64,000 nt of DNA from an uncultured Bacillota bacterium (GTDB taxonomy: Bacteria > Bacillota_I > Bacilli_A > RFN20 > CAG-288). The translations under genes and the position numbers were made by a program. Numbering within the stretch: the stretch's first letter is position 1; every line of letters starts with the position of its first letter. The stretch is from positions 86,545-150,544 of the forward strand of contig CASGEC010000001.1 of assembly GCA_949300365.1 (NCBI GenBank), in the 5' to 3' direction. The notes beneath the pieces are model-generated. The model ran no database searches and was not told the origin of the DNA. It saw nothing but the letters and a program-made list of their open reading frames with translations. Positions 14,250 through 19,447 of this stretch are shown piece by piece.

Positions 14250-14526
14250 AATTTGCTTGGCAAGGAAAAAGAAGAGAATTCCTATTGCTCAAGGCTAAAT
14301 TGTCTTAAAAATCCATGCCTGTTTTCCGAGGTTGGCTTTGGAAGCAGGGTTTATTGATGTCTCTTGTGAATAGGTGCCCGTCTTTCGTATATGAGACTTA
14401 CCGATTGACCTTCGATTGCACAACTCGAGATGGACTCGTTATCCTCCAGAAGGGGTCTTGGATGGTTCATTACGCGCCATTCCGAATACAGGTGCAAACG
14501 AACCCTATTTCGTAATATAGGTTGGG

Positions 14527-14700
14527 CTTCAACGATATCTCCATCAATAGAGATTGACCTTTCCTTGATCTCCTGCGGAGCAAAGGCGACTCCCAGATTG
14601 ATGCAGGCGTAAAACGCATTCTGGTTCTGATATGTCATCTGCCTAAAGGGTATTTGATGATGCCGGGGGTATTATGTTTATTGCGCGCCCTTTCCCACAT
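14527..14700 (-). pseudogene. remnant of a second SirTM-like SIR2 gene (3'-terminal fragment only)
   Basis: The translation MTYQNQNAFYACINLGVAFAPQEIKERSISIDGDIVE is about 60% identical to the C-terminus of the SirTM-like protein at 16207-17049 (QMTYRNLKAIYACVNNGEMYAPKEIADRSVCIDGDIGE). The rest of the gene is absent. Confidence 0.55.
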
Positions 14701-14702
14701 CT

Positions 14703-16030
14703 TTATTTCTCAAGGGATTTCGGGTCAAGCAGAAAATCATAGATGTTTATTGTCAGGATACCATATTCATCATACTGCGTTGGCACCATATCCCTGGTAA
14801 TGATGATTTTCTTGAAGGAATCATCGATCTTCCTGAATGGCCGGATCTCCTGCCATCCGTTTTGTTTCATCCGGCAGGGTGTAGGCGGATTGAATATAGT
14901 ATCTGGAAGAACCAAGATTACATACAAAATCAACTTCCAGCTGCTTACGTGTTACTTTTCCGTTCCGATCTTTTGCGGCGATGGGAACAACGCCTACATC
15001 GACATTGTAACCGCGCATGCGAAGCTCATTGTATATCACGTTTTCCATGGAATGGGTCTGTTCAAACTGACGAAAGGCGATTCTTGCATTCCGCAGTCCT
15101 AGATCCGAAAAGTAATATTTTTTGGGGGTTTCAATATAGGCTTTTCCCTTGATGTCATATCGCTGTGCAGACTCGATCAGGAAGGACTCCTCATAATAAT
15201 CCAAATACTTTTTGATGGTATTGGACGTTATTTTGGATTTCTTCACCGTTCGAAAAGTGTTTTTAAGTTTCTCCGGGTTAGTCAGAGAACCTATCGCAGA
15301 AGAAAGAATGTTCAGTAGATCCTCCAATTCGCCGATATTCTTGACATGATTCCACTGGACTATTTCCCGAATATATATTTCACGGAACAGGTTCTGCAAT
15401 GCCGCAAACTTTATCATTTGCCCCATCCCGCAGGACGACTAGGGGAATGCCACCATAGAGCATATATTCGGACAGTCCCACATACTTATCCCCTTTATAG
15501 ATAGACATGAATTCCGCAAAGCTCAGAGGATACATTGGAACTTCATCGCCACGGCCGGCAAACTCAGTGGCAATATCTTTGGATAGAAGCCTTGCATTGC
15601 TTCCTGTCACAAAGACATCCATATTATCTTTTCGCAGATAGCTGTTCAGGACAGCTTCAAAACAGTCCATCATCTGGATTTCATCCAGCAGCAAATAATA
15701 CATTCCATCGTCAACAGCTTTTGTTCGGACATAAGCCATGAATTTTTCCGGGTCTACGCCACGCTTTTCTTTTTCAATTCCAATAAGGCTTTCGCCGATC
15801 CGGTGCAGGTCGTCCGCTGAGTCGAAGGCAAAACGGATGATATGGCCAGCAGGAACGCCGCTCTTAAGTAGATGATAATAGAAAAGGTTGTTGAGCAGAT
15901 AGGATTTCCCACACCTGCGAATACCCGTAATGACCTTAATGAGTCCGTTGTTCTTTCTTTTTATCAGTTTGTCCAGATAGAAATCTCGGCGAATCTCCAT
16001 ACGGCTACCTCCTGCAAAAGACTTTTGCAA
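14703..16030 (-). pseudogene. DUF4143-containing AAA+ ATPase (COG1373-like), disrupted by at least two frameshifts
   Basis: Three consecutive ORFs in different frames (15380-16030, 14821-15426, 14703-14933) together cover an N-terminal P-loop (GIRRCGKSYLL) and the DUF4143 C-terminal region. They overlap at both junctions. Confidence 0.7.
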
Positions 16031-16206
16031 CCAAACACACTTTTCTGTTCTGTTTTATCGTGAAACAGGCACTTGTTCAATATGCCCGTGTAGACTTAGA
16101 AAAGATTTTTGCAACTTCTTTCATTTTTTCCGTTTTCGATTGCGTATATGCCGGATTCCTTGATCAGGCCATTTTCCTTTTGCGAATCCGTTTTTTCAGA
16201 TATACA

Positions 16207-17049
16207 TCACGCTTGATTTCCATCTAATTCTTTCAACACTTCGCCGATATCTCCGTCAATGCAGACAGACCGGTCTGCGATCTCCTTTGGCGCATACATC
16301 TCACCATTATTGACGCATGCGTATATTGCCTTCAGGTTCCGATAAGTCATCTGCCAGAAGGGGTATTTGATGATTCCGGGAGTGTTGAAGCCGACACCGA
16401 GTTCCAGGAAAAGGACGCGTTTGGTCCTGTTCTCCTCAAGGAAACGGACATAACGATGGTGGGCTCTTATCCACCCCTCGTCTTCGGCAAAGGATCCGTC
16501 GCAGCGGAGGTTCATCGCCATCTCCCTGCCACAGATGGGACAATGGGGAATATCCCTAGTCGGAATCCGATTGTCCTTTATGTCATGGACCATTTTGAGA
16601 ATCCACTTTTTGTTGTCGTATGTCTTTTGATGGCAGGGAAGAGAGCATTGGAACAAGCCATAGTCTCCTTGGGGATAGAAAAGCCTTTCTTTGTCAAAGC
16701 CGGCGAGCTGGAACTGGTGGTCGACATTGGTCGTGATGACAAAATAGTTCCTGTCACGGACAAGGCCGAAAAGGCTTTGATAGAGCCTCTTGGCTCCGCC
16801 TTGATATCTTTCCAGATAGACGAACCGGGACCAATAGGCCCATTTCTCCTCACTTGTCGAAAAGGCGTGGAAACCGGCTGAATACATATCCGTATAGCCA
16901 TAGCGCTCGTGCATCCAGGAGAAGTTATCCAGGAATGTCTTGCCGCCGTATTCGAAACCCGCGGCGGCGGACAAGCCAGCACCGGCCCCGATGACGATTG
17001 CCTCGGATTCAGCGATAAGCTTCTGCAAGAGCTTGGTAGTATGTTTCAT
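16207..17049 (-). CDS. SIR2-family protein, SirTM-like (macrodomain-linked sirtuin; putative protein ADP-ribosyltransferase)
   Basis: 280 aa. Rossmann motif GAGAGLSAAAG, TTNVDHQF, and a Cys pair and Cys cluster (CSLPCHQ...CPICGRE) forming a Zn ribbon. It sits directly downstream of a macrodomain gene and has an AAGGAGG RBS. Confidence 0.75.
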   Translation of the reverse strand: MKHTTKLLQKLIAESEAIVIGAGAGLSAAAGFEYGGKTFLDNFSWMHERYGYTDMYSAGFHAFSTSEEKWAYWSRFVYLERYQGGAKRLYQSLFGLVRDRNYFVITTNVDHQFQLAGFDKERLFYPQGDYGLFQCSLPCHQKTYDNKKWILKMVHDIKDNRIPTRDIPHCPICGREMAMNLRCDGSFAEDEGWIRAHHRYVRFLEENRTKRVLFLELGVGFNTPGIIKYPFWQMTYRNLKAIYACVNNGEMYAPKEIADRSVCIDGDIGEVLKELDGNQA

Positions 17050-17112
17050 AGTCCTCCTTGCTGAAGACGTCGAAGACGACTTTTCCTATTTGGCTTTGCA
17101 AGAGATAGGATT

Positions 17113-17766: not shown

Positions 17767-17852
17767 CTTTTCTCTCCTTTGTCTCGGTGTGGAAGGTAAT
17801 AAGGATCCTATCCTATTTCGATAAAGGCCACCTTTTGGGTGGCCAGGATATA

Positions 17853-18641
17853 TTACTCTCCGAAGTAGGCGTTTGCTGTGATATCCAGATAATTCAAGCC
17901 AGAATAGTCTGGATAGGCATTCTTGACCATATTGATGAAGTCGGCCTTATCTTTTGCCTTGGAGGCCATCTTCTTGATGCTTTCGATATAGGCAATCTTG
18001 GTCTTGACGTCGTCTAGGGTTTCCGGCGCGTAGTGGCTGGTCAGGATGATGTCGTAGCCGGCAAGGACAAAGCCTTTCAATTCGCTGATGAGGCTATCGG
18101 CATGTCCGTTTCCGGCGATGATCGAATGGACGTCATGGCAGAGCATATGGGTATAGACGGCATGGAAAGAAGGAAGGACGACATCGAACTCCTCGCCTTT
18201 GGGAAGGAGGGTGAGGGAAATACCATCGAAATTGATGGGGGAGTTAATTTCCTTGTAGTCATCCCTCAGCTCGTCTTGGATCTTGTCGCCAAAGGCCTTG
18301 ACGAAATCATCGAACAGGGTTTTTGGACCACCGCTTCTCAGGGCATGGATGGCATCTTTTTCCGAGCAGAGTGTTGCCTCTGGGAGATAGTCCTTCGGAG
18401 CGACGTGATCGACAAGAAGGATATAGGCCTTACGTATTTTAAGACCTCTTACAAAGGCGTTCAGCTCCGAAACGTTGTCCTTGAAGAGCGGCGCTTCGAT
18501 GGAGACAAGGACATCGCCCTTGCGGATGAGGATGACCTGGTCATCGATGGGATCCTTTGTCTCATAGGCATAAAGCGTTTCCCCTTCCTTTTCGTAGATG
18601 CGCAGTTTTCCGAATGTCAGCTTTTCTTCTCTGATGTTCAT
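17853..18641 (-). CDS. hypothetical protein (possible metal-dependent hydrolase fold)
   Basis: 262 aa with a good RBS (TAGGAGGAAAAG). It contains H/D-rich motifs (HMLCHDVH, GNGHAD) but no confidently recognisable family. Confidence 0.5.
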   Translation of the reverse strand: MNIREEKLTFGKLRIYEKEGETLYAYETKDPIDDQVILIRKGDVLVSIEAPLFKDNVSELNAFVRGLKIRKAYILLVDHVAPKDYLPEATLCSEKDAIHALRSGGPKTLFDDFVKAFGDKIQDELRDDYKEINSPINFDGISLTLLPKGEEFDVVLPSFHAVYTHMLCHDVHSIIAGNGHADSLISELKGFVLAGYDIILTSHYAPETLDDVKTKIAYIESIKKMASKAKDKADFINMVKNAYPDYSGLNYLDITANAYFGE

Positions 18642-18761
18642 TGTCTTTTCCTCCTATCGAGTTACGCCCCTATTCTAGGAATGCGGTAGCAAATGAGGAA
18701 GTACGCACTTTAAAGTGGTATAGTATCTTTTAGGAAACCATAATCGTTAGGGAGGTGGAAA

Positions 18762-19088
18762 ATGATCGATCGGAACGCCTTGCCTGCCTGTCCTGTCGAG
18801 ACAACCTTGAGCATCATCGGGGATAAATGGAAGGTTCTTATCCTTCGGGATCTCTTTACCGGAACGAAAAGATTCAACGAGCTCAAGAAAAGCCTGAAGG
18901 GAATCACCCAGAAGATGCTCACGCAGCAATTGCGGGAAATGGGAGGGGACGGCCTCCTCCATCGGGAAGTCTATCCTGTCGTTCCTCCAAAGGTGGAGTA
19001 TTCCCTGACGGAACTTGGAAAGACACTAAAGCCTGTTATCGACTCCCTTTATGACTGGGGAAGCCGGTTGAAGGAAGGCCGGATTTAG
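18762..19088 (+). CDS. HxlR-family (MarR-like winged-helix) transcriptional regulator
   Basis: 108 aa. The CPVETTLSIIGDKWKVLILRDL...FNEL motif is typical of HxlR/HTH_34. GGAGGTG RBS. Confidence 0.8.
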   Translation: MIDRNALPACPVETTLSIIGDKWKVLILRDLFTGTKRFNELKKSLKGITQKMLTQQLREMGGDGLLHREVYPVVPPKVEYSLTELGKTLKPVIDSLYDWGSRLKEGRI

Positions 19089-19259
19089 TAGTCCTGTGTC
19101 TTTGTCTTTGCGAAGAAGACAGTCCTTTTGCTTTCCTTTTTATACAGTTCTCTTGCCTCACAAGAGAAATTCATTTCAGAAAAAAGAAAATGCCCGATTT
19201 CTCGGGCAGAGAATCATTTTGATACGTTGGTTTGTACCAAAATGCCTGATTTCAATTGG

Positions 19260-19331
19260 TGGCGGGGGCAAGATTTGAACTTACGACCTTCAGGTTATGA
19301 GCCTGACGAGCTACCACTGCTCCACCCCGCG
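19260..19331 (-). tRNA. tRNA-Met (anticodon CAT), initiator-like
   Basis: The reverse complement folds as CGCGGGGTGGAGCAG...CTCATAA...GGTTCAAATC...CCCCGCC-A-CCA. There is a 1:72 mismatch and an initiator-like D arm, but the anticodon stem carries only two of the three G-C pairs. Confidence 0.75.
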
Positions 19332-19447
19332 ATGTAGTGCCTTTTGAGGGCACAGATAAGTATAGGGCCTATGCCCCATGAATGCAAGCCCCAAATCCGA
19401 AAGAAAAAGAAGACAAGGACTCTCCTTTGGAAGTAGAATAGAGAGCT

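Follow-up and report, generated by a model that had tools for sequence, protein, structure and literature searches.

Results

Gene content of the locus

We analysed 64,000 nt of the genome of an uncultured Bacillota bacterium (assembly GCA_949300365.1, contig CASGEC010000001.1, positions 86,545 to 150,544); this whole stretch is called the window below and all coordinates refer to it. The window sequence is 100% identical to ENA ERZ16268115 scaffold_0. A glucose-6-phosphate isomerase encoded near the locus shares ~70% identity with proteins from "Bacilli bacterium" metagenome-assembled genomes, which indicates a host of that kind, an uncultured Firmicute of the gut. The block of genes studied here lies between an mntP-like gene and a tRNA-Met gene and contains a predicted protein ADP-ribosylation pair, made up of a putative writer, SirTM, and a putative eraser, Zn-Macro. 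On the reverse strand, a gene for a 262-aa protein (hyp262), the Zn-Macro gene and the SirTM gene follow one another, and an ATPase pseudogene and a fragment of a second SirTM-like gene lie behind them; a regulator of the HxlR family is encoded divergently. All six elements had been listed in a first-pass annotation prepared from the sequence without database searches, and each was found again where that annotation had placed it. The open reading frames (ORFs) of hyp262, SirTM and HxlR are full length and intact. Three features within 3 kb are disrupted: Macro by one frameshift, the ATPase by two and the SirTM fragment by one.

For comparison we used a sister strain (L002/L004; 99.5% identity over the region), the 80 closest SirTM loci from reference genomes (56–64% identity) and 80 metagenome loci centred on hyp262, 66 of which have sufficient downstream sequence. 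SirTM homologues number more than 8000 in the protein collection.

The SirTM and Zn-Macro pair

The SirTM gene (16207–17049, reverse strand) encodes an intact protein of 280 aa that matches SpySirTM (PDB 5A3A) with an E value of 1e-55 and the fungal Macro-SirTM fusion 8RSN with 2e-27. Class M sirtuins are defined by the change of HG to QG (Gln137 in SpySirTM) (PMC4518038). In the window protein, Q127-G128 (in FYPQGDYG) aligns with HIQGEYG of the Spy enzyme, so that QG stands in place of the catalytic HG. The alignment with 5A3A further equates N108 (TTNVD), Q127 and R182 (NLRCD) with Spy N118, Q137 and R192, and GVGFNTP at residues 218–224 with the Spy motif GVGx[NT]TP. The zinc ribbon that had been noted earlier is borne out by four zinc cysteines (C135/C139/C170/C173), and a grouping with CobB-type deacetylases, which the first-pass annotation had named as an outcome that would weaken its case, is countered by the QG motif and by the SpySirTM match. 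As is typical of class M, a Zn-type macro gene lies directly upstream, and a macro gene is adjacent to SirTM in 74 of the 80 closest loci. The window SirTM is thus, by homology, a predicted NAD+-dependent protein mono-ADP-ribosyl transferase.

The Zn-Macro gene occupies 17009–17766 of the reverse strand if an out-of-frame C-terminal continuation is included; the ORF as read in the window is shorter (17113–17766, 217 aa; Pfam Macro, E 4e-31). Its closest matches of known structure were 8RSI (E 2e-53) and 5KIV (E 3e-47). The Cys/His cluster GCFHPLHSCVDNAIH (Macro residues 100–114) lines up column for column with the segments GCFIPMHNCIDNIIH (8RSI) and GCMQANHDCIDNIIH (5KIV), and the Dx3H motif is likewise aligned with both. 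The earlier observation that a Cys/His cluster replaces the Gly-rich loop therefore holds against two Zn-Macros, the Zn-site residues being present once aligned. With the class-M residues and the Zn-Macro cluster both aligning with solved structures, we regard the macrodomain and SirTM-like pair as genuine. The NCBIfam protein-ADP-ribose hydrolase profile scored 231.6 bits on the window Macro, below its cutoff of 272, and covered profile positions 37–221 of 265. By family, the window Macro is a putative zinc-dependent ADP-ribosyl hydrolase, predicted to reverse the SirTM mark.

One nucleotide present in the sister strain is deleted from the macro gene of the window (GG in place of GGG, at ~17142). 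The reading frame is thereby closed at 17113, 8 residues past the GFP of the diphosphate loop (GxxGFP), and the remaining ~35 C-terminal codons run on in another frame to 17009, overlapping the start of SirTM. The 217-aa product does not comprise a complete macrodomain fold, whereas the sister-strain Macro is complete (252 aa), with its gene overlapping SirTM by 41 nt. Since ENA and Logan assemblies made independently of each other (L001, L005) both contain the truncated allele, and since the intact allele (L002, L004) comes with ~20 further single-nucleotide polymorphisms (SNPs) relative to the window strain, we take the frameshift as a genuine strain difference rather than a misassembly. Losing the last helix and strands would most likely inactivate the hydrolase. 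Six of the ~20 inter-strain SNPs are packed into 13 nt of the macro gene (17591–17603) and turn QTTLETKK into QKALKDKK; such clustering is suggestive of a short tract of recombination or conversion, not of scattered point mutation.

SirTM systems have been classed as "extended operon, operon, or fusion" by Ariza et al. 2024 (PMC11490716). The components that mark the extended operon, GcvH-L and LplA2 next to the pair and OYE/LLM nearby, were not found in the window: Pfam scanning of the genes over all 64 kb gave no match to GcvH (PF01597) or to lipoate ligase (BPL_LplA_LipB), and OYE (PF00724) and LLM (PF00296) do not appear in its Pfam listings. A tblastn search with E. coli GcvH, which has limited sensitivity, gave a hit in none of the 80 related loci. 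The statement in the first-pass annotation that GcvH-L and LplA2 are missing here is thus correct. Its view that this makes the pair unusual does not stand, as lone pairs have already been described (Rack 2015, PMC4518038; Ariza 2024, PMC11490716); the form is known, and the window pair is, by its gene content, one of them. Zn-Macros of lone pairs fail to demodify GcvH-L (PMC11490716), and their substrate therefore appears to differ. The same work calls the targets of the other SirTM/Zn-Macro systems, lone pairs included, elusive (PMC11490716), in keeping with the earlier statement that the target of this SirTM is open.

The predicted MBL-fold gene hyp262 and the divergent HxlR-family gene

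The first gene of the putative operon, hyp262 (17853–18641, reverse strand, 262 aa), gave nothing meaningful in sequence searches with Pfam up to E 1 (33 members), NCBIfam, PADLOC or PDB profiles, and none of the 33 family members matched Pfam Lactamase_B. An AlphaFold2 model built with 33 homologues reached a pLDDT of 94 and matched B1 enzymes in Foldseek with E ~1e-9; the predicted model has the alpha-beta/beta-alpha sandwich of the metallo-beta-lactamase (MBL) superfamily. As structure prediction alone resolved hyp262, we base the fold assignment on it, and with high confidence predict an MBL fold. The canonical HxHxDH motif is absent, with a lone invariant His, H79, at that place (VDHVAP in the window, consensus YHxAG). 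Together with the later conserved blocks YTHMLGHDxHS and SHYxPE this gives a non-canonical pattern of H79, H165, H169, D170, H172 and H203.

The association with the pair was seen from either side. Downstream of hyp262 a Zn-Macro is found in 53 of the 66 informative loci, mostly followed by SirTM, and 15 of the 80 closest SirTM loci contain a hyp262 homologue, mostly directly upstream of macro. We rejected the idea that hyp262 serves as a partner of SirTM only, given that ~13 of the 66 loci have HxlR and hyp262 by themselves and that a copy in Treponema parvum stands apart from the pair. This last copy (L169:6001-6879, CP054257.1) is the most distant named homologue; it has a lipoprotein-like N-terminus and adjoins genes for Rrf2, rhodanese and hemerythrin, and the 6 kb examined on each side contain neither SirTM nor macro. 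Altogether, hyp262 looks like a putative enzyme of a stress regulon, with the ADP-ribosylation pair as a frequent addition.

The divergent regulator (18762–19088, forward strand) matches 86 of the 91 positions of the winged-helix HxlR profile (PF01638, E 4e-36) and has an N-terminal Cys in the context ACPVE. Against the NCBIfam model redox_TF_RrpB-like it scored 122 bits, below the cutoff. A divergent HxlR homologue is located upstream of hyp262 in 63 of the 80 hyp262 loci, and in 33 of the 80 closest SirTM loci an HxlR gene lies within 10 kb of SirTM. The HxlR/hyp262 intergenic region harbors a conserved operator-like motif: the core [AC]AC..N2-5..GTGC.TACTT was found in 41 of 61 such regions, compared with 1 of 11,200 shuffles, and is frequently preceded by GTTWC-N6-GWAAC. 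In the window the motif reads GGTTTCC-N6-GATAC TATAC CACTTTAAAGTGCGTACTT and, with no strand assigned, spans 18699–18740, where the core match covers 18699–18717 and the extension to 18740 is tentative. Read from the sequences of several loci, the core abuts TTTACA-N17-TATAMT-like promoter elements oriented toward the operon; a consensus promoter scan of the intergenic region of the window gave nothing convincing. In the literature library searched, no paper combined SirTM with HxlR.

Clustering of neighbours in the 80 SirTM loci showed which genes lie upstream and co-oriented: PNPOx-ferredoxin (24), the hyp262 family (14), DUF1848 (11), NAD(P)H-binding proteins (11), aldo-keto reductases (9), nitroreductases (9) and PNPOx (7), with Rrf2 regulators, FMN reductase and flavodoxin also among the upstream neighbours of the pairs. 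The commonest gene directly upstream of a lone Zn-Macro/SirTM encodes a fusion of ~205 aa between a PNPOx-like FMN-binding part and a 4Fe-4S ferredoxin (L080:8610-9227 and 23 further loci). The redox-enzyme neighbours, the HxlR gene and the conserved motif lead us to favour stress signalling over phage defence as the more likely role.

The proposed ATPase cassette and the SirTM 3' end

Behind SirTM lies an ATPase pseudogene of the AAA_14 plus DUF4143 type (14703–16030, reverse strand; AAA_14 E 4e-29, DUF4143 E 4e-19), whose AAA_14 part (15380–16030) and DUF4143 part (14821–15426), both on the reverse strand, are in different frames. DUF4143 is listed in a survey of the PD-(D/E)XK nuclease superfamily (PMC3424549). 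An intact homologue (L128:7784-9037) gives a full-length match to the PADLOC candidate PDC-S01 (E 1e-119), making the window gene insertion cargo of candidate PDC-S01 type. Relative to this homologue the window copy has two frameshifts, as its earlier description as a frameshifted gene had implied, and is split over three frames, leaving no full-length ORF of the PDC-S01 kind. The sister strain has one of these frameshifts, common to both strains; the one at 14854 is extra in the window. A dip in G+C content (42–45%) is limited to the ATPase segment.

On either side of the pseudogene stands a copy of the SirTM 3' end. These two copies (~147 nt, ~71% DNA identity) form a direct repeat, and the region has no other substantial one. 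The left copy (16239–16386, reverse strand) is the 3'-terminal part of the intact SirTM, beginning with the GVGFNTP codons, and the right copy (14527–14673, reverse strand) is the SirTM fragment, which starts precisely at these codons. The fragment corresponds to residues 222–270 of SirTM at 58% identity, in line with the remnant of ~60% identity reported before, with a further 9 of 10 identical positions over 222–231 in another frame. It is frameshifted in the window; an extra C in the sister strain restores an ORF of 116 aa.

Co-oriented fragments starting at residues 221–223 (213 in L144) were found in seven other loci: L019, L025, L054 (twice), L128, L132, L144 and L164, two of them from HiFi assemblies. 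The cargo between SirTM and fragment is an AAA_14/DUF4143 ATPase in L128, L054, L025 and L019 and an AbiEi/AbiEii pair in L132, and in L144 and L164 the fragment comes right after SirTM without cargo. L128 and L132 are ~97% identical through SirTM and 92% identical past the cassette, with differing cargo and fragments in between. Their repeat pairs measure ~183 nt, reaching from the motif to ~20 nt beyond the stop codon, and the pair in L132 is nearly identical. A second pattern was a drop in identity at the GVGxNTP motif: certain SirTM genes agree at 94% before it and at 35% after it. One of these genes is followed by prophage-like replication genes, others by Schlafen/AlbA_2, DUF559 or more ATPase genes; no SirTM fragment was present within 2.4–10 kb in L173–L175. 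The small cassettes were not found to encode a recombinase. We conclude that the ATPase and the fragment represent a putative cargo cassette, now decayed, at a hotspot of repeated recombination set by the SirTM 3' end. Such cassettes could arise by site-specific recombination supplied in trans, or by homologous exchange via the conserved coding segment.

The idea that the fragment is always the displaced 3' end of the host gene was contradicted by L128 and L132, which share intact 3' ends and have fragments that vary with the cargo. Several loci are of interest in their own right. A tandem array behind SirTM in L054 (10880–14120) consists of a partial ATPase, a fragment, an intact 417-aa ATPase, a second fragment and an ATPase fragment. 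In L019, which is a circular HiFi metagenome-assembled genome, an IS3-type transposase (rve) sits within the cargo that separates SirTM from its downstream fragment (11306–12214). AbiEi (DUF6088)/AbiEii genes lie directly behind SirTM at L132:7702-9319 and L172:4387-5998; these AbiE copies share 94% DNA identity, and the flanking SirTM 3' ends 85–87%. Finally, a motif-swapped SirTM in L171 (9011–16645) is followed by a prophage-like series of DUF2800/PDDEXK_1, AAA_24, a DEAD helicase, a PriCT_2 primase and RusA.

Flanks of the locus

The locus ends on one side at the mntP-like manganese efflux gene (13668–14249, forward strand; Pfam Mntp, E 1e-31) and on the other at the tRNA-Met gene with anticodon CAT (19257–19331, reverse strand), identified by ARAGORN and by Rfam (64 bits). 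The tRNA is of initiator type, as previously suspected, with a C1xC72 mismatch, A11:U24 and two of three anticodon-stem G:C pairs; Rfam found only this tRNA in 13000–20500. We rejected it as an integration site. Searching 10000–24000 for 16–40 nt of its 3' end, with up to 3 mismatches allowed, found no further copy, and the repeat search showed none either. Between the tRNA and mntP there is no integrase or recombinase, the genes there being HxlR, hyp262, Macro, SirTM and the ATPase. The tRNA-Met-flanked island proposed by the first reading accordingly reduces to adjacency. The four-gene module occurs in other chromosomal settings among relatives (e.g. L171, L173 and L175) and, because its surroundings differ in this way, can be considered accessory.

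Beyond the tRNA-Met, 19448–20893 encodes a RimK-family ATP-grasp ligase (302 aa) and then a GNAT acetyltransferase (170 aa). On the mntP side, five tRNA genes (Val-TAC, Tyr, Gln, Lys and Leu-TAA) are clustered within 500 nt at 8233–8737, and 10724–12730 encodes an ABC-transporter protein in which a solute-binding part (SBP_bac_3) and a permease part (BPD_transp_1) are fused. This fusion protein is annotated with 586 aa and 626 aa in the two strains, so that its start is uncertain.

Discussion

Interpretation and alternative explanations

Taken together, we think it likely that the locus is a lone-type MBL-fold/Zn-Macro/SirTM operon with a divergent HxlR gene, that its eraser is truncated in this strain, and that the ATPase and SirTM fragment are a separate, older insertion. 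Homology and the published biochemistry of the families suggest that SirTM would use NAD+ to mono-ADP-ribosylate a protein and that Zn-Macro would remove the mark. The conserved context suggests that hyp262, Zn-Macro and SirTM are co-transcribed. Most likely, HxlR would repress the operon via the operator-like motif and release it under oxidant or electrophile stress, and the pair may then tune a stress response, as has been proposed for the extended operon. GcvH-L would not be the target; we consider the MBL-fold enzyme of the same putative transcript, or else a redox protein from another part of the genome, most plausible in that role. With its eraser truncated, the module of the window strain is probably unbalanced or decaying. 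In an event of its own and at an earlier time, a small cassette with a PDC-S01-type ATPase may have entered between repeats of the SirTM 3' end, after which the ATPase decayed.

Several observations weigh against this interpretation. hyp262 occurs with HxlR and without Macro/SirTM in ~13 of 66 loci, and of the 80 closest loci with SirTM, 65 do not contain it; in T. parvum it is predicted to be a lipoprotein and has no SirTM in its vicinity. The HxlR link comes only from guilt by association and the conserved motif. Truncated Macro might keep some function, or its frameshift might be tolerated if the operon is silent. As for the cassette, the fragment in L128 and L132 travels with the cargo, and mosaic SirTM genes instead imply a crossover at the motif. 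The loci with HxlR and hyp262 alone and the T. parvum copy also mean that hyp262 need not be the SirTM target. We would give only a modest chance to the stronger proposal that in this lone-pair branch hyp262 acts as physiological target or obligate co-enzyme and that, in parallel, the GVGxNTP-coding segment is the attachment site for small recombinase-less defence cassettes. If true, hyp262 would be the first concrete candidate substrate beyond GcvH-L.

The disruption of Macro, the ATPase and the SirTM fragment within so short a distance would also be expected if the whole region were a non-functional relic that the window strain is losing and that has no current role. We consider this unlikely, given that hyp262, SirTM and HxlR are intact, that the sister-strain Macro is intact as well and that the operator-like motif is conserved. 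Readings in which the genes act in defence or as a toxin-antitoxin system are less likely. A toxin-antitoxin-like arrangement, with SirTM as a toxic transferase and Zn-Macro as its antidote in analogy to DarT/DarG, would account for a writer/eraser pair with overlapping genes and the eraser first, and also for the mobile and defence-type cargo that clusters beside the pair. It is nevertheless very unlikely: an eraser truncated next to an intact SirTM in several independent assemblies fits poorly with a strongly toxic writer, the pair lies in larger operons with metabolic and redox genes, and the SirTMs described in the literature act with high specificity on a single target protein (PMC4518038).

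Anti-phage defence, in which the SIR2 protein would be an NAD+-consuming effector, the AAA ATPase a sensor or motor and the macrodomain a safeguard, seems to us highly improbable. SIR2 domains occur in several defence systems, the neighbouring ATPase is of a type that matches PDC-S01, and AbiE or Schlafen-like genes stand behind SirTM in other loci. However, this SIR2 protein is of class M, with QG instead of HG, and PADLOC gave no match for SirTM, Macro, hyp262 or HxlR; the conserved gene neighbourhood consists of redox enzymes and a regulator of redox type. The ATPase, which the first-pass annotation had listed alongside the pair, lies within its own repeats, is a pseudogene in the window and has AAA_14/DUF4143 counterparts in just 5–7 of the 80 closest SirTM loci, marking it as separate cargo. 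For the origin of the fragment, the same annotation had proposed that SirTM was duplicated in tandem and that one copy then eroded. The presence of a second co-oriented SirTM-like sequence at a distance of 1.7 kb would suit this explanation, which we nonetheless find quite improbable, as the copies share just ~71% of their DNA and near-identical SirTM genes elsewhere switch from 94% to 35% identity at the motif. Fragments with the same left boundary at GVGxNTP enclose varied cargo, ATPase or AbiEi/AbiEii, in the seven other loci, where arrays also occur, and for this reason we favour recurrent insertion over tandem duplication.

The lone-type operon interpretation narrows the search for lone-pair targets, since the closest pairs often end HxlR- or Rrf2-associated operons that are headed by redox enzymes. 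One sizeable branch is headed by hyp262, which makes this protein a testable candidate substrate or partner, and the strain pair with an intact and a frameshifted eraser offers a natural comparison. The end of the SirTM gene would be a recombination hotspot that gathers defence-type cargo. As cargo collects there, a neighbouring ATPase should not be annotated as part of the ADP-ribosylation system. Two features deserve following up: the proposed partnership of HxlR with the MBL-fold protein, and the hotspot at the SirTM 3' end.

Comparison with known systems

The described lone pairs (PMC4518038; PMC11490716; e.g. Enterococcus faecalis and Treponema pedis) are the closest to the window pair. 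They share the QG and GVGx[NT]TP motifs and the zinc domain of SirTM, an upstream Zn-Macro with the Cys/His loop and Dx3H, and the lack of GcvH-L/LplA2. Unlike them, the window pair forms the tail of a putative MBL-headed operon with a divergent HxlR gene, neither of which is mentioned in PMC4518038 or PMC11490716, and its eraser is frameshifted. With the extended operon of Staphylococcus aureus and Streptococcus pyogenes (GcvH-L, Zn-Macro, SirTM, LplA2, OYE, LLM) the window shares the writer and eraser families (5A3A, 5KIV), the association with redox enzymes and, probably, control by oxidative stress. It differs in having no GcvH-L, LplA2, OYE or LLM in 64 kb.

PDC-S01 is a PADLOC candidate for single-gene defence (AAA_14 + DUF4143, COG1373). 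The intact homologue of the window ATPase matches it fully, while the window copy itself is broken by two frameshifts; PDC-S01 is itself only a candidate.

In Streptococcus thermophilus, ICESt1/ICESt3 and CIME elements accrete site-specifically at the 3' end of fda. The SirTM cassettes differ from these elements in that no integrase or excision product was identified for them, that their repeat is long (~147–183 nt) and that the crossover point is ambiguous, lying either at the left-boundary motif or just after the stop codon. In common they have cargo enclosed by direct repeats of a conserved gene 3' end, tandem arrays, small cassettes without a recombinase of their own, and varied cargo that includes defence and toxin-antitoxin genes and a prophage-like region.

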